A DNA stretch of 64,000 nt. It comes from Escherichia phage vB_Eco_F31. Under the pieces are notes generated by a model. The model saw nothing but the letters and a program-made list of their open reading frames with translations. It was not told the DNA's origin and did no database searches. Both the position numbers and the translations under genes were made by a program. Below are positions 15,015 through 55,373 of this stretch, in pieces. The stretch lies in the sequence record OP870147.1. One strand, given 5' to 3'. Positions within the stretch are counted from its first letter, which is position 1. Each line of letters begins with the position of its first letter.

Positions 15015-15836
15015 TTAAGATTTCCAAACAGTATTCGCAGAGAAACGTTTTCCTTTTGACATAAACTGCTGAGTAGGTAACATGATTATGTTAGCCCAGT
15101 CTTTAGGAGCTATTTCTGTTATTGTTCCTCTAATGTGGCCTGGCAGGTATGCTTTAATCATTTTGTCAGCACCTTGAAATCCTTTCACCTTGCTCCAGTC
15201 TATCTTCAACTTTGTGTTATTAGTAATAGTAGTTGTGCTAGCATATTGCTTCAGCAATTCTTCAAGAAACTGTTGACGTGCTTTAGGCGGGATATAGTGC
15301 AAGTTTAACCCATACATCAAATTATGTTTACCTAATCCTAAATAAATAATCAAAGGATATCTGTCCCAATACGGCAGAGTATCTTTATGTTTAGCATCAT
15401 ACACGTAAGTATAAATTTTGCCTGGCGTAGGCTTGACTACTTTATGGCCTTTTACACTTTTCTTAATTGTTTCAACAAACCACTTAGATGATTTGTTGTT
15501 TACTGCTGCGCCTTCATTTCTAATCTTTTCTCGTATTGAACTGCGAAACGAGTTTATCATCAGAAGTTGACGTTCTTGCTTATTGAGTTTATTTTTAGGT
15601 TTAGATTCAAGCGTTTCAATTTTCTGTGCAGTCTTAATAGATGATGCATATCTAGACATTGCCGATGTAAACGACGAGTATTTTATTCCTTTTGATTCTG
15701 CAAATGCTTTTGCAGTGATTCCTTTCTCTTTAGCTTTCTTGTATTCTAATCCTATCTCAATCCATTTTCTTTCATTCATAGACTGAGCAATCTTAGGGGC
15801 TTGTACGCCTTCAGATATAATTTGGAATATGCTCAT
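15015..15836 (-). CDS. 2: gp2 DNA end protector protein
   Basis: 273 aa (T4 gp2 is 274 aa); synteny. Confidence 0.8.
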
Positions 15837-15838
15837 AA

Positions 15839-16288
15839 TTACCCCTTGTATCCGAGTTTTCTAAGACCATCTTCGGTTAGAACTCGAAATTTTATATTTC
15901 TCTTTTCAGCAACAGCTGAGGCAGCTTTCCATTTGTCACAGTTCACAGACCACGTGTAGATTTCATTCATATAACGTTTCTTAGCCGCAGTTGTAAGATT
16001 CACTGGTTTAATAGGTGGCTGAGTTTCTTTCTTTGGTTTTATTTCTACAAAAAACTCTTGGCCTGATGCATCTTTCATCCATATGTCCATATAGTATCGA
16101 CGTTTCTTACCTTCAGCATTACAAAAATATGGAATTACTGCTGTTTCACTACCCCATGCAATAATTTCTGGATTTTTATCCAACCATTCGAAAAAGAATT
16201 TTTCCCAGTTTGAACGATACGTTATTTTGGTATGGTCTCCACGGTATTTTTTTAAATTTTTTGGGACCCATTTACCAGAGTAGGCCAT
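15839..16288 (-). CDS. 4: gp4 head completion protein
   Basis: ORF track frame; ATG 16288 gives a 150-aa protein, preceded by AAGGAGGA. Confidence 0.85.
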
Positions 16289-16299
16289 GTTGTCCTCCT

Positions 16300-16307
16300 T
16301 ATAAATA
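16300..16307 (+). promoter_or_regulatory. late promoter TATAAATA for genes 53-5
   Basis: Exact octamer 43 nt upstream of gene 53 start; back-to-back with the gene 4 promoter. Confidence 0.65.
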
Positions 16308-16314
16308 GTATTAT

Positions 16315-16322
16315 TATTTATA
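16315..16322 (-). promoter_or_regulatory. late promoter TATAAATA (minus strand) for gene 4
   Basis: Exact octamer 27 nt upstream of gene 4 ATG. Confidence 0.65.
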
Positions 16323-16349
16323 CCAATTTCATATTGGAAGGAGACTATC

Positions 16350-16925
16350 TTGTTATTTACATTCTTCGACCCAATAGGATATAGTGCTAAAACAGTTAAT
16401 AAGAATGCACCTACTATTCCTATGACAGACATATTTCGTAACTATAAAGAGTACTTTAAGCGTGTGGCTGCCAATTATAGATTACGTTCTTATTATATTA
16501 AAGGCTCTCCACGTCCTGAAGAACTAGCTAATATCATTTATGGCAACCCGCAATTATACTGGGTTCTTTTGATGTGCAACGATAACTACGACCCGTATTA
16601 TGGTTGGATTACATCTCAGGAAGCAGCGTATCAAGCTTCTATTCAGAAATATGCTAATGCCGGTGGAGACCAAATTCTTTACCATATTAACGAGAACCGT
16701 GAGAAATTTTACAATTTAGTTTCATATCCAGACGAGCCTTTAGTGTGGTACGATAAAGGTGATGAAGCTCGTAAGTATCCGCAATATAAAGGACCTTTAG
16801 CTGCAGTAGATACTTATGAAGCGGCAGTATTAGATAATGAAAAACTTCGTAAAATAAAAATTGTTGCAAAAGAAGATATAAACTCGTTTATTACTGATTT
16901 GATTCGTGAGATGGAGATTGCATAA
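16350..16925 (+). CDS. 53: gp53 baseplate wedge protein
   Basis: 191 aa, MLFTFFDPIGY...; initiator codon is TTG preceded by GGAAGGAG; no in-frame ATG upstream. Confidence 0.88.
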   Translation: MLFTFFDPIGYSAKTVNKNAPTIPMTDIFRNYKEYFKRVAANYRLRSYYIKGSPRPEELANIIYGNPQLYWVLLMCNDNYDPYYGWITSQEAAYQASIQKYANAGGDQILYHINENREKFYNLVSYPDEPLVWYDKGDEARKYPQYKGPLAAVDTYEAAVLDNEKLRKIKIVAKEDINSFITDLIREMEIA

Positions 16926-18658
16926 TGGAAATGATTAGCAGTAGCCTTAATTGGTTCGTGGGTGTTGTCGAGGACAGAATGGACCCATTAAAACAAGGGC
17001 GAGTTCGAGTGCGAGTGGTTGGACTTCATCCCGCACAGAGAGTACAAGGCGATGTGCAGGGTATTCCTACAGAAAAACTTCCATGGATGACTGTTATTCA
17101 ACCTATTACGTCTGCATCAATGTCAGGTATTGGTGGTTCTGTTACAGGTCCTGTTGAAGGAACTCGAGTATATGGTCATTTCTTAGACAAATGGAAAACA
17201 AACGGGATTGTACTTGGTACATATGGTGGAATTGTACGTGAAAAGCCTAATAGACTTGAAGGTTTTTCAGACCCGACAGGTCAGTATCCGCGACGTTTAG
17301 GTAATGATACGAACGTATTAAACCAAGGTGGTGAAGCTGGTTATTATTCAAACTCTAACGTAATTCAAGATAACAACTTGGATTATGGTATAAACCCAGA
17401 CGATACAGATTTAGCAAATATTCCAGAAGATGATGACCCTAATTTTACAATAACAGAAATGTTACGTCGTGACGAAGGTCTTCGTGATAAAGTGTATTGG
17501 GACCATCTCGGATATCCTACCGTAGGTATTGGACACCTTATAGTAATGGAAAAAACCCGAGATATGTCTCGAATTAATAAATTGTTATCCGATCAAGTAG
17601 GGCGTGAAGTAACAGGAAATCCAGGGACTATTACATTAGAAGAAGCAACAGCGTTATTTGAGAAAGACCTTGCTAAGATGCAGAAAGACATTCGTTCTAA
17701 TTCTAAAGTAGGTCCTGTTTATGCTAAAATGAACAGGTCTCGTCAAATGGCATTAGAAAACATGTGCTTCCAAATGGGTGTTGGTGGTGTAGCAAAATTC
17801 AATACTATGCTTAAAGCAATGGCCACAGGTGATTGGAAAACTGCATACAAATCTGGACGCGATTCGTTATGGTTCCAACAGACTAAAGGACGCGCTTCAC
17901 GTGTAACAACAATTATTTTAACTGGTAACATGGAATCATATGGCGTTCCTGTTAAAACACCACCTTCACCAGGAGTTGGTGCCGATTTAGTTACTAGAAA
18001 TACCGATCCAGAAGACCCTGCTGGTCCTCCTGTTCCATTAGATTCACGTATCCTTTTTAAAGAACCGGAATCAAGTTATCGTGGTGAGTATCCATACGTT
18101 CATGCTATGGAAACAGAAAGTGGTCATATCCAAGAATTTGACGATACTCCAGGTAATGAACGTTATCGCTTAGTTCATCCAACAGGGTCATATGAGGAAG
18201 TTTCTCCATCCGGGCGTCGTACTCGTAAAACTGTAGAAGACCTTTTTGACATCACTAATGGTGATGGGAACTTCTTGATTTCTGGCGATAAGCTTGTTAA
18301 CGTTGGTGCTAATGAAATATATTATAACATGGCAGACCGCCTCCATCAAATAGACGGCAATGACACAATCTTTATTCGTGGTAACCAATCTAAAACTGTT
18401 GAAGGCGATGGAACTCTTTACGTTAAGGGTAATATCAAAATAGTTGTTGACGGAAATGCAGATATTCTTGTTAAAGGCGATGCTAAAACTCAGGTCGAAG
18501 GGAATCATGATTACACCGTCAACGGAAACGTTAAATGGACTGTTAATGGTAATGTTGATATGACTGTTGCCGGGGATTGGGCAGAAACAATGTCTACAAT
18601 GAGCTCAGTAGCTTCAGGACAATACACTGTTGACGGATCTCGTATTGATATTGGGTAA
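16925..18658 (+). CDS. 5: gp5 baseplate hub / tail-associated lysozyme
   Basis: 577 aa; internal lysozyme-like segment DEGLRDKVYWDHLGYPTVGIGHL; C-terminal beta-helix VxGxxxxx repeats. Confidence 0.95.
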   Translation: MEMISSSLNWFVGVVEDRMDPLKQGRVRVRVVGLHPAQRVQGDVQGIPTEKLPWMTVIQPITSASMSGIGGSVTGPVEGTRVYGHFLDKWKTNGIVLGTYGGIVREKPNRLEGFSDPTGQYPRRLGNDTNVLNQGGEAGYYSNSNVIQDNNLDYGINPDDTDLANIPEDDDPNFTITEMLRRDEGLRDKVYWDHLGYPTVGIGHLIVMEKTRDMSRINKLLSDQVGREVTGNPGTITLEEATALFEKDLAKMQKDIRSNSKVGPVYAKMNRSRQMALENMCFQMGVGGVAKFNTMLKAMATGDWKTAYKSGRDSLWFQQTKGRASRVTTIILTGNMESYGVPVKTPPSPGVGADLVTRNTDPEDPAGPPVPLDSRILFKEPESSYRGEYPYVHAMETESGHIQEFDDTPGNERYRLVHPTGSYEEVSPSGRRTRKTVEDLFDITNGDGNFLISGDKLVNVGANEIYYNMADRLHQIDGNDTIFIRGNQSKTVEGDGTLYVKGNIKIVVDGNADILVKGDAKTQVEGNHDYTVNGNVKWTVNGNVDMTVAGDWAETMSTMSSVASGQYTVDGSRIDIG

Positions 18659-25897: not shown

Positions 25898-25922
25898 GGG
25901 AGCCTTCGGGCTCCCATTTTTG
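25898..25922 (+). terminator. rho-independent terminator after gene 8 (GGGAGCC-TTCG-GGCTCCC + T-run)
   Basis: GC stem, tetraloop, ATTTTTG tail. Confidence 0.7.
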
Positions 25923-25926
25923 TATC

Positions 25927-25934
25927 TATAAATA
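25927..25934 (+). promoter_or_regulatory. late promoter TATAAATA for gene 9
   Basis: Exact octamer 33 nt upstream of gene 9 ATG. Confidence 0.7.
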
Positions 25935-25966: not shown

Positions 25967-26839
25967 ATGGCATTTTTTAAGCAAACTCCTAAACAATTAA
26001 TCGATACCGGCGAAATTGGTAATGCCTCAACAGGTGATATCTTATTCGACGGTGGTAATAAAATAAATGACGATATCAACGCTATTTACAATGCATTTGG
26101 CGATCAACGTAAAATGGCCGTAGCAGATGGAACCGGACCTACAGGTCAAACTATTCATGCCACAGGATATTATCAAAAAGGAAAGGCGGTCGATTATCAA
26201 ACTCCTATTAAACCAGGCACCATGCATGATATTGATGCTTCTGATGGCGGTGTGATTGTTATTATTGACCGTCCTGAATTAGGTGACTCTGTAGAATTCA
26301 TAAACTCTAATGGGTCTATTTCTGTTAACAATCCTTTAAGTATCCAAGTAACCGATGGTTCGATTAAAGGTGTTCTTAATAATCTTGTTATTTCCACCCC
26401 TTATACCCATGTTGTTCTTCGTTGTGTTGAACTTAATGGACCAACTTCAGTATGGAATTATTCTACTGATAGCATGTTTGGGCAGAAAGAATCTCCTGTC
26501 GATGGGACTTGGAGTCTTACAGGAAACACAGTTTCTATTCCTCTGTTTTATCGCACGGATTATAACATGGCTAAATTGCTTGTTACATGCCAATCCGCTG
26601 ACGGTAGAAAAATAAAAACATGCGAAATAAATATTCTAATAGATACAATTAACTCAGAAGTTCTTTCTACCGAATTTGCAGTAATGCGAGTTGGTAATGT
26701 AGATGAAACCGACGAGATTGCTAATATTAGCTTTAGTATTATTAACAACTTTGCTACTATGACGATTACATCCGATATTATTGGATTACGTTCAGCAGTT
26801 AAAATTATCTCAACTCAGAAAATTGGGGTCGCTCAATAA
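25967..26839 (+). CDS. 9: gp9 baseplate wedge / long tail fibre socket
   Basis: 290 aa, MAFFKQTPKQLIDTGEIGNASTGDILFDGGNKINDD...; synteny. Confidence 0.92.
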   Translation: MAFFKQTPKQLIDTGEIGNASTGDILFDGGNKINDDINAIYNAFGDQRKMAVADGTGPTGQTIHATGYYQKGKAVDYQTPIKPGTMHDIDASDGGVIVIIDRPELGDSVEFINSNGSISVNNPLSIQVTDGSIKGVLNNLVISTPYTHVVLRCVELNGPTSVWNYSTDSMFGQKESPVDGTWSLTGNTVSIPLFYRTDYNMAKLLVTCQSADGRKIKTCEINILIDTINSEVLSTEFAVMRVGNVDETDEIANISFSIINNFATMTITSDIIGLRSAVKIISTQKIGVAQ

Positions 26840-53548: not shown

Positions 53549-53947
53549 TTACACTCTATTGCTTGACGCTAACTGAAGTTTAATTTGTTCAATATCGTCA
53601 GGGTTGTCTACGACCGAAAATCTAATCTCTACTATAACCGTATAGTCATCATATACTGGCGTTACACTTACAGAAAGTTTGTCGATGCGTGGCTCATAGT
53701 TACGAACAGCTGCCTGGATATTACGCTCAATCGTATCGGCTGTAAGTGGTGTCATGTTCTCGAAAAGTTCATCGACCAAATCACATCCAAATTCAGGGTC
53801 GAAGGGGCGTGAGCCTTTTCTAGTTGTCACTATGCCAAGAAGACTATTTTTAATAGAACGAAGTCCTACAGAACGAGCAACGTCCTTGTTCCAATCCATA
53901 CGCATTTCTGGGTCGATATCTGAATAAAGTTTATTGATATTAGACAT
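53549..53947 (-). CDS. 25: gp25 baseplate wedge protein
   Basis: 132 aa, same length as T4 gp25. Confidence 0.92.
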   Translation of the reverse strand: MSNINKLYSDIDPEMRMDWNKDVARSVGLRSIKNSLLGIVTTRKGSRPFDPEFGCDLVDELFENMTPLTADTIERNIQAAVRNYEPRIDKLSVSVTPVYDDYTVIVEIRFSVVDNPDDIEQIKLQLASSNRV

Positions 53948-54573
53948 TATAGTAACTCAAAGAATTCTTTGAGGCCTCGTATTGTGTGAACGTGTGACGC
54001 CCCACATTTGGGACATTTAATAGGGGTTGCTAGATAAATTGATGGTGATACTAAAAGATTTTTAATATTGATCATGTCATCTTCCGTTATAAGGCCATAA
54101 AGGTCGTTTATTTCTGCTTCAGTTAAATCTTCAACAGGGATGGACTCTCCATTGACAAAAACGGCCTCAATACATGAAGCAATCATTAATGCGATATTTT
54201 TATCGTCAAATAATTTAGGTTGACGGAACTTAATTTTAATACCGCTGAACGAATACCAGGGATCGGCCTGTTCATCTAATTGAGTGTGCAATAAATTCAT
54301 ATAGACTTGAAATGAATGCCCACAGGAACAATTCCAGGTGTGTTCTTGATTCACTTCACCTAATGAATGGGCCCACAGATTTACCAACAATAGCTCGGCT
54401 TCTTGTTTAGTCAAGTTTTTAGCGTTAGAGCAATTAGTGATAATATTGTTCACTGCTGATTCAATAGTACCGGTAGCCCGTGCACCTATGAGTCCTAAAT
54501 ATTCTTTTAAAGTAAAGGCTCTACAATTCACTTCTTTATCGCCTAAACGTACGGTAAACGTATATTTGTACAT
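53947..54573 (-). CDS. 26: gp26 baseplate hub protein
   Basis: 208 aa, same length as T4 gp26. Confidence 0.9.
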   Translation of the reverse strand: MYKYTFTVRLGDKEVNCRAFTLKEYLGLIGARATGTIESAVNNIITNCSNAKNLTKQEAELLLVNLWAHSLGEVNQEHTWNCSCGHSFQVYMNLLHTQLDEQADPWYSFSGIKIKFRQPKLFDDKNIALMIASCIEAVFVNGESIPVEDLTEAEINDLYGLITEDDMINIKNLLVSPSIYLATPIKCPKCGASHVHTIRGLKEFFELL

Positions 54574-54591: not shown

Positions 54592-54599
54592 TATTTATA
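54592..54599 (-). promoter_or_regulatory. late promoter TATAAATA (minus strand) for genes 26-25
   Basis: Exact octamer about 19 nt upstream of gene 26 ATG; overlaps the divergent gene 51 promoter. Confidence 0.6.
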
Positions 54600-54603
54600 A
54601 ATA
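54596..54603 (+). promoter_or_regulatory. late promoter TATAAATA for gene 51
   Basis: Exact octamer 18 nt upstream of gene 51 ATG. Confidence 0.6.
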
Positions 54604-54620: not shown

Positions 54621-55373
54621 ATGGCTAATATAATTCGTTGTAAATTACCGGATGGTGTTCATCGTTTTAAGCCGTTCACTGTGGCGGATTATAGAGACTT
54701 TTTACTAGTTAGAAATGATATCGAACATCGTTCGCCGCAAGAACAAAAAGAAATAATTGCCGATCTGATTGATGATTATTTTGGCGAGTACCCTAAAACA
54801 TGGCAACCATTTATATTCCTGCAAGTTTTTGCAGGCTCTATAGGCAAAACAAAAGTTCCCGTTATTTTCACTTGCCCTAAATGCTCTAAAGAAAAAACTG
54901 CACCATTTGAGATATATCAAAAAGAACTAGTCGAACCTGAACTTGATGTTGCTGGTATAAAAATACGTTTTTCTTTCCCTGAAAAGTTTTATGACAACAA
55001 GGCATTAATGATAAGTGAAAACATAAAAGAAATATATTATAATGACAAATGGTACCCATGGAATGATTTGACTGAAGAGAACCAAATCCAAGTAATAGAA
55101 GCAATAGACATTGACTCGCTCGAGAAGGTTATTGCTTCTATGAACCCTATTAATTTGACCCTTAGATTAGGTTGTTGTGAACGTCATGTTAAAACATATA
55201 CTGATATCTTAGAGGTTTTTAAATTGTTAGTTAACCCTGATGAGATTTTTACATTCTATCAGATAAACCATTCACTGGTAAAGAGTCAATACACATTGGA
55301 TTCTATTATGCAAATGATTCCTGTTGAACGTGGTATTGCTTTAACATTAGTAGAAAAGGACCATAAAAAATGA
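54621..55373 (+). CDS. 51: gp51 baseplate hub assembly catalyst
   Basis: 250 aa; synteny 51-27-28-29-48-54. Confidence 0.9.

Follow-up and report, generated by a model that had tools for sequence, protein, structure and literature searches.

In Escherichia phage vB_Eco_F31, the DNA that separates the divergent genes 4 and 53 is very probably a late control region with two late promoters, in which gene 53 is translated from a UUG codon at 16350 (positions are those of the window, the whole stretch of 64,000 nucleotides from record OP870147.1 that we analysed; Table 1). We propose that the two TATAAATA elements would be read by RNA polymerase with the phage sigma factor gp55, gp33 and the gp45 clamp, with predicted 5' ends at about 16313 for the gene 53 mRNA (+ strand element) and about 16309 for the gene 4 mRNA (- strand element). 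Each element would lie within the other's first transcribed bases, so that probably one polymerase at a time could act here. The leader of the gene 53 mRNA would be 37 nt long, with AAGGAG placed 6 nt ahead of the UUG, which the initiator tRNA would read as fMet to give the full 191-aa gp53 (MLFTFF...). With genes 53 to 8 on one transcript, the relative amounts of their proteins would be set at translation, and the UUG, together with a Shine-Dalgarno sequence somewhat weaker than that of T4, would be expected to give less gp53.

Table 1. Features of the gene 4/53 locus and of the gene 26/51 promoter pair, in window coordinates.
Feature	Position	Strand	Remarks
Gene 4 (head completion / head closure protein)	15839..16288	-	ATG at 16288-16286; PHROG 218
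Predicted gene 4 late mRNA leader	16289..16309	-	21 nt, ACTATTTATAAGGAGGACAAC; start inferred from the -13 to -6 rule (Nolan et al. 2006)
Gene 4 Shine-Dalgarno AAGGAGGA	16300-16293	-	within the predicted gene 4 leader
Late promoter element TATAAATA, P53 (gene 53)	16300..16307	+	predicted start site 16313; RB69 Pl:80613
Predicted gene 53 late mRNA leader	16313..16349	+	37 nt; includes the 14-nt CCAATTTCATATTG at 16323-16336
Late promoter element TATAAATA, P4 (gene 4)	16315..16322	-	reads TATTTATA on +; predicted start site 16309; RB69 Pl:80684
Gene 53 Shine-Dalgarno GGAAGGAG	16336..16343	+	6 nt (ACTATC) to TTG; duplex with 16S 3' end, -8.8 kcal/mol
Gene 53 TTG initiation codon	16350..16352	+	Shine-Dalgarno 6 nt 5'; annotated start in RB69 NC_004928
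Gene 53 CDS, baseplate wedge subunit gp53	16350..16925	+	191 aa, 22.4 kDa; PHROG 232
In-frame ATG (Met25), rival gp53 start	16422..16424	+	no Shine-Dalgarno, +0.2 kcal/mol
Gene 5 (baseplate hub + tail lysozyme)	16925..18658	+	next in unit; own GGAG 8 nt upstream
Gene 26/51 divergent late promoter pair TATTTATAAATA	54592..54603	both	octamers overlap by 4 bp; RB69 Pl:118620, Pl:118672

By nucleotide identity the window is from a Mosigvirus, an RB69-like relative of T4: positions 16150-16950 are 99.4% identical to Escherichia phage vB_EcoM_NBG1 (Mosigvirus), 95-99% identical to about 150 further Mosigvirus (RB69-like) genomes and about 76% identical to Tequatrovirus (T4-type), and the CDS coordinates of genes 2, 4, 53 and 5 coincide with those of RB69 (NC_004928) across a collinear stretch of 50 kb. 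The gene 4 product matches the PHROG 218 head closure family (E 4.8e-60, residues 1-147), and its coordinates are those of the RB69 gene 4 CDS in the collinear locus; the duplex with the 16S rRNA 3' end is -12.2 kcal/mol before the gene 4 ATG at 16288 and +0.1 kcal/mol before a far upstream ATG at 16432. The product of gene 53 belongs to the gp53 family by full-length homology to T4 gp53, matching PHROG 232 over residues 1-189 (E 2.5e-70) and the T4 gp53 chains (PDB 5hx2/5iv5 and others) over residues 1-189 to 1-189 (E 7e-112). A single-sequence AlphaFold2 model of gp53 had a mean pLDDT of 34.5, too poor for a fold search. Gene 53 lies between the divergent gene 4 and gene 5, a conserved position that it also holds in 13 other sampled lineages, and its TAA stop overlaps the ATG of gene 5 by 1 nt.

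The gene 53 start codon

The gene 53 frame opens after a TAA at 16302-16304, which is in frame with the TTG at 16350, and among the fifteen codons that separate the two (ATA GTA TTA TTA TTT ATA CCA ATT TCA TAT TGG AAG GAG ACT ATC) there is no ATG, GTG or TTG; the first in-frame ATG 3' of the TTG is that at 16422 (Met25). The original prediction had described this frame, the lack of an in-frame ATG before the TTG and the position of the TTG six nt after GGAAGGAG, and reading the DNA directly returned exactly the same coordinates. The start region therefore has what a genuine UUG start would show, a Shine-Dalgarno sequence spaced 5-9 nt from the codon, with no canonical in-frame start after the preceding stop.

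We estimated Shine-Dalgarno energies by pairing the 20 nt before each start with the 3' end of 16S rRNA, which gave -8.8 kcal/mol before the TTG at 16350 and +0.2 kcal/mol before the Met25 ATG. The segment between the UUG and the next AUG also bears protein-coding constraint. Compared with T4 gene 53, codons 2-25 carry 13 synonymous and 2 non-synonymous codon differences, and codons 26-185 carry 68 synonymous and 24 non-synonymous ones; by this measure codons 2-25 are at least as constrained as the remainder of the gene. The scarcity of non-synonymous differences from T4 in codons 2-25 argues that the stretch before Met25 is translated.

Comparison of the start codon across related phages, a check suggested along with the original prediction, found ATG precisely at the homologous codon in 14 of 17 sampled lineages, namely T4 and thirteen others (Karam-, Gelderland-, Kanagawa-, Dhaka-, Krisch-, Biquarta-, Ceceduo-, Schizotequatro-, Tulane- and Otagovirus, Klebsiella phage TNG87, Yersinia phage MHG19 and Vibrio phage F86), and TTG in Mosigvirus. 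In the lineages that start with ATG, gp53 begins M-[LI]-[FL]-x-[FYIT]-F. The MLFTFF N-terminus had been described as conserved, and among the sampled homologues the motif is indeed family-wide, an N-terminal MLFxFF being kept as far as the homologues of Vibrio and Pseudomonas phages. Alignments to the PHROG 232 profile and to the PDB gp53 chains begin at residue 1, and in a tblastn search with gp53, 1493 of 1504 records covered at least 80% of the query, nearly all of the matches listed beginning at residue 1. The TTG at 16350 is thus well supported as the initiator of gene 53, as originally proposed, by the Shine-Dalgarno energies, the homologous ATG, the coding constraint and the family alignments, and the RB69 RefSeq annotation agrees. 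Our literature search found no N-terminal sequence, ribosome profiling or mapped 5' ends for any Mosigvirus, and nothing on the gene 53 start codon, proteomics or transcript mapping for RB69-type phages.

Two other places for the start were weighed against the TTG. The usual start codon is ATG (67 of 69 CDS in RB69), PQ516281 annotates gp53 from Met25 and extends gp4 across the region, and several further records have no gp53 feature over 16310-16390, all of which would fit a gp53 that starts at the ATG at 16422, with the DNA from the TTG to Met25 as an untranslated leader. We consider such a start very unlikely, however, given that Met25 has none of the ribosome pairing that precedes the TTG, that the differences in codons 2-25 are mostly synonymous against T4, where these codons are certainly coding (ATG start), and that the MLFxFF motif and the PHROG 232 and PDB alignments all include residue 1 onward. 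The extended gp4, at 197 aa from the ATG at 16432, has no Shine-Dalgarno sequence, and its frame cannot be conserved because the T4 intergenic length differs by 14 nt. Between the TTG model and the Met25 model, the comparative evidence from these genomes settles the choice in favour of TTG. We give almost no credence to initiation at an in-frame near-cognate codon (ATC 16347, ATT 16326, or ATA 16305 or 16320). Such codons do occur in frame 3' of the TAA, and AUU, AUC and AUA are able to initiate at about 1-2% of AUG, but this is about ten times weaker than UUG. In addition, the distance between the Shine-Dalgarno sequence and ATC 16347 is just 3 nt, and RB69 has ATT at that codon; ATT 16326 lacks a Shine-Dalgarno sequence and sits inside the 14-nt segment missing from T4, and ATA 16305 is 5' of the predicted transcription start site at 16313.

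The TTG start is shared throughout the genus. We used an 81-nt query centred on the gene 53 start codon for exact-haplotype megablast against the 152 Mosigvirus-type records of the GenBank phage set. The window's own TTG haplotype was 100% identical in 111 of the 152, the RB69 TTG haplotype in 13 and the Shf125875 TTG haplotype in 22, so that TTG is present at gene 53 in at least 146 of 152 records (six were not placed in a haplotype), and the ATG version of the window's 81-nt sequence had no exact match in any record. As all three haplotypes bear TTG, the TTG of gene 53 is, on these records, a fixed feature of Mosigvirus and neither a strain mutation nor a sequencing error. It is also exceptional within the genome: the 69 complete CDS of the collinear 50 kb of RB69 comprise 67 ATG starts, 1 GTG and 1 TTG (gene 53), and among the cleanly mapped starts in the window there are 58 ATG, with TTG at gene 53 only. 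An apparent non-ATG start of gene 9 (TTT 25973) was an alignment artefact, and the ATG of gene 9 is at 25967.

Non-ATG starts of gene 53 occur elsewhere too. In Slopekvirus the start is GTG (the surrounding sequence is the same in 108 of 111 records), and in an Acinetobacter phage group it is a GTG with GGAG 6 nt upstream and, four codons 5' of it, an ATG without a Shine-Dalgarno sequence. A non-ATG start in 3 of 17 sampled lineages is mildly suggestive. Scans of IMG/VR with the gp53 protein and with the degenerate pattern DTGYTNTTYACNTTYTTYGAYCC returned 10 and 12 loci, which mostly repeat the T4, RB69 or Karamvirus types or are spurious short matches.

The late promoters between genes 4 and 53

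Two exact copies of the octamer TATAAATA lie on opposite strands between genes 4 and 53, only 7 bp apart, as had been read from the DNA before; the + element is 42 nt before the start of gene 53 and the - element 26 nt before that of gene 4. In T4, the late promoter TATAAATA sits at -13 to -6 (Nolan et al. 2006), and genes 45 and 55 have been reported to be among the core genes of the T4-related phages (Geiduschek and Kassavetis 2010). The claim that the two octamers are late promoters is supported: as putative T4-type late promoters they would serve genes 53 and 4, they belong to a set that is enriched in the window, they are kept across lineages and their RB69 counterparts were predicted by Nolan et al. 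2006.

The arrangement follows a conserved order of gene 4 Shine-Dalgarno sequence, + element, spacer, - element and gene 53 Shine-Dalgarno sequence, and both elements occur in the same order in 12 of the 13 sampled lineages that have a divergent 4/53 junction. Among these 13, the + element is exact in 10 and reads AATAAATA in Karamvirus and Gelderlandvirus, while the - element is exact in 11 and reads TATTTATC in Krischvirus; the Slopekvirus junction, the sole such case, has no recognisable octamers. Mosig-, Tequatro-, Karam-, Gelderland- and Dhakavirus share a spacer of 7 bp between the octamers, and the other lineages that keep the pair have one of 8-15 bp.

An alternative is that the octamers are chance matches in AT-rich DNA, with transcription of genes 4 and 53 starting elsewhere, and a genome of this composition would be expected to hold about 7.6 exact octamers by chance in 64 kb. 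However, the window has 18, against 7.6 +/- 3.0 in dinucleotide shuffles, none of 100 shuffles reaching that number, and the + strand, the strand of genes 53 to 24, carries 14 of the 18. Furthermore, both octamers keep their place and order in genera whose flanking 4/53 intergenic sequence has diverged. Nor do other candidates for the promoter stand out: a scan of 15800-17000 gave 8 sigma-70-like sites, no more than chance would explain (5.0 +/- 2.2 expected), and gene 53 has no further late element 5' of it on the + strand, because the genes upstream lie on the - strand. Chance matches are thus highly improbable as an account of the pair. The T4 RefSeq record has no promoter features at the 4/53 locus.

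Another way to view the pair is by the direction in which its members point. Of the two, the + element is nearer to gene 4, adjoining its Shine-Dalgarno sequence, and the - element is nearer to gene 53, which would make the two units cross. Applying the -13 to -6 rule gives predicted start sites at 16313 (+) and 16309 (-) and an overlap of about 5 nt between the 5' ends, which would place each element inside the other's initial transcribed region. The original description of these promoters as back-to-back and shared does not fit, since both the sides on which the elements lie and their predicted start sites make them crossing promoters. The region would be a small example of a compact bidirectional layout for late control.

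A similar pair had been pointed out between genes 26 and 51 at 54592-54603. The pair is present there, but its geometry is not that of the 4/53 pair. The ORFs at 53947-54573 (-) and 54621-55373 (+) belong to the baseplate hub family PHROG 150 and are genes 26 and 51. As at 4/53, two exact TATAAATA octamers lie on opposite strands between divergent genes, here both of the baseplate. The 26/51 octamers, however, overlap by 4 bp and face away from each other in a true back-to-back arrangement, whereas the 4/53 elements face each other and their transcripts would cross. Because the 26/51 octamers overlap and point outward, their start sites would diverge.

The probable 53-8 transcription unit and the output of gene 53

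After P53, the next exact + strand TATAAATA is at 25927, just before gene 9, and a GC-rich hairpin with a T-run lies 3' of gene 8 at about 25898-25919. With no further exact copy on that strand as far as gene 9, genes 53 to 8 probably share one transcript, and P53 probably serves genes 53, 5, 5.1, 5.4, 6, 7 and 8 as a unit of about 9 kb. If this one promoter is shared, ratios within the unit must be set at translation, and genes 53 to 8 would offer a possible case of translational setting of subunit ratios in a long late operon. In the predicted gene 53 leader, the 14-nt CCAATTTCATATTG follows the - element and leads up to the gene 53 Shine-Dalgarno sequence; T4 lacks it. Folding of the predicted leaders gave z-scores of 0.04 (gene 53), -0.20 (gene 4) and -0.01 (T4 leader) relative to shuffles, and being so near the shuffled controls the leaders give no sign of structure that masks or assists the start.

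The UUG may have been selected because it makes gp53 limiting among the 53-8 products, a role called down-tuning in the original prediction; one instance would be the prevention of premature association of hub-less wedges, which gp53 binding triggers. Several observations are consistent with this. Hecht et al. group AUG, GUG and UUG together, with initiation at 10-100% of the AUG level, against about 1-2% for AUU, AUC and AUA, and the Shine-Dalgarno sequence is slightly weaker than that of T4 (-8.8 vs -10.8 kcal/mol), which also points to lower output. Gene 53 has the sole TTG among the 69 neighbouring CDS of the collinear RB69 stretch, this TTG is fixed in the genus, and two more lineages, Slopekvirus and the Acinetobacter phage group, independently have GTG as the start of gene 53. 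A tail needs only 6 copies of the protein, which on binding causes wedges to associate with one another even when no hub is present (Leiman et al. 2010); genes 53 to 8, moreover, are apparently under one promoter.

Against selection, ATG is used by most sampled lineages, T4 included, and the change could be neutral or slightly deleterious and simply inherited, which would account for the fixation of TTG in a single genus. In T4, an ATG behind a stronger Shine-Dalgarno sequence serves for the same 6-copy gp53, which shows that gp53 function does not depend on a weak start, and for the same reason an adaptive role would be a conjecture rather than a result. Adaptive down-tuning, with the UUG lowering gp53 output, is therefore plausible but doubtful, and neutral inheritance in Mosigvirus of a tolerated change of start codon would be the default explanation. 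It is rather improbable that gene 53 has repeatedly moved to weak starts (TTG in Mosigvirus, GTG in Slopekvirus and in the Acinetobacter group) so that the start codon keeps gp53 limiting. If it were true, the choice of start codon would be a lever against hub-less, dead-end baseplates for a protein that would share its transcript, made from one late promoter, with partners required at equal or higher amounts.

Known systems and existing annotation

The gene 53 TTG start and the 4/53 and 26/51 promoters are already known. The RefSeq record of RB69 and AY303349 annotate gene 53 from a TTG at 80688; Additional file 5 of Nolan et al. 2006 lists the RB69 late promoters Pl:80613 (+) and Pl:80684 (-), whose listed intervals contain both 4/53 octamers, and Pl:118620 (+) and Pl:118672 (-), which are the 26/51 pair; and OL960577 (GenBank) annotates both 4/53 octamers as T4-type late promoters. 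With these annotations in place, the finding is a rediscovery, and its main importance is for annotation, with no new question opened. Gene callers that disfavour TTG yield a truncated gp53 and a falsely extended gp4 in several Mosigvirus genomes.

The closest known counterpart is RB69 gene 53 (NC_004928 / AY303349, NP_861853.1), which has the same gene order, CDS coordinates, TTG and Shine-Dalgarno sequence as the window, with two TATAAATA octamers, a 7-bp spacer and a 61-nt intergenic region between genes 4 and 53 as here. RB69 differs by point changes, having ATT before the TTG where the window has ATC, and V16I in gp53; the window is closer to vB_EcoM_NBG1 (99.4%) than to RB69. T4 likewise has an orthologous gp53, TATAAATA-N7-TATTTATA set against the gene 4 Shine-Dalgarno sequence, and the neighbours 2, 4 / 53, 5. 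In T4, however, gene 53 starts with ATG after the Shine-Dalgarno sequence AGGAGG (-10.8 kcal/mol), compared with TTG and -8.8 kcal/mol in the window, its 4/53 intergenic region is 47 nt without CCAATTTCATATTG rather than 61 nt, and the overlap between its genes 53 and 5 is 17 nt long, compared with 1 nt in the window.

Genes of E. coli and its phages with UUG or GUG starts resemble gene 53 in having a good Shine-Dalgarno sequence (6 nt) and fMet decoding, with an output expected to be below that from AUG. The AUU start of infC (Hecht et al.) is autoregulatory, whereas gene 53 is without evident autoregulatory logic or RNA structure.

In PQ516281, where gp53 is annotated from Met25, the 197-aa gp4 reaches to the ATG at 16432 and so runs through both promoters into gene 53. 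A start at Met25 implies a 19.7 kDa gp53 beginning MTDIFR, and residues 1-24 of the full-length protein include the peptide LFTFFDPIGYSAK.

Non-ATG starts of gene 53 and their consequences for annotation

Gene 53 also begins at a non-ATG codon in two further Straboviridae lineages, both of which use GTG and are represented here by Klebsiella phage PMBT1 (a Slopekvirus) and Acinetobacter phage AB-Navy71. Within Slopekvirus, the sequence around this GTG is identical in 108 of 111 records. Non-ATG starts of gene 53 were thus found in 3 of 17 sampled lineages, compared with about 3% of genes when the RB69 stretch alone is taken as the base.

Because gene 53 has a TTG start, the region has been mis-called in some deposited Mosigvirus genomes. 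In these, gp4 is given as 197 aa from a far upstream ATG, a model that spans both late promoters and enters gene 53, and gp53 is called from Met25. These paired calls are an annotation error. Several other records carry no gp53 feature at all in the gene 53 start region.

Positions of features at the 4/53 junction and along the probable 53-to-8 unit
Feature	Position	Strand	Record or sequence
Insertion relative to T4	16323-16336		CCAATTTCATATTG
Extended gp4 call	15839-16432	-	e.g. PQ516281 (GenBank; locus L044)
gp53 call from Met25	16422	+	e.g. PQ516281 (GenBank; locus L044)
Gene 53/5 overlap	16923-16927		TAATG
Hairpin and T-run to gene 9 late promoter	25898-25934		GGGAGCCTTCGGGCTCCCATTTTT (hairpin and T-run)
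Gene 9 late promoter	25927		TATAAATA
Slopekvirus 4/53 intergenic region	L038:351-400
Gene 53 GTG, PMBT1	L038:401
Gene 53 GTG, AB-Navy71	L037:401

The 4/53 intergenic region

In Mosigvirus, a 14-nt insertion relative to T4 lies between the promoter element of gene 4 and the Shine-Dalgarno sequence of gene 53. Within this insertion is a 5-bp palindrome (CCAAT/ATTGG), and its 3' arm abuts that Shine-Dalgarno sequence. Folding showed no signal above that of shuffled sequences. Slopekvirus is the sole sampled lineage that has the divergent junction but lacks octamers resembling TATAAATA in its intergenic region. The + strand there carries CTAAATA, which is similar to the variant late motif reported for Aeh1 (Nolan 2006).

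The probable 53-to-8 unit

The gene 53 stop and gene 5 start share one base, whereas the overlap in T4 is 17 nt. With a GGAG inside gene 53, 8 nt upstream of the gene 5 start, this arrangement makes translational coupling of the two genes possible. Directly 3' of gene 8 lies a GC-rich hairpin that carries a T-run, and the late promoter of gene 9 comes after it. Taken together, they look like the place where a 53-to-8 late transcription unit ends and the following one begins.
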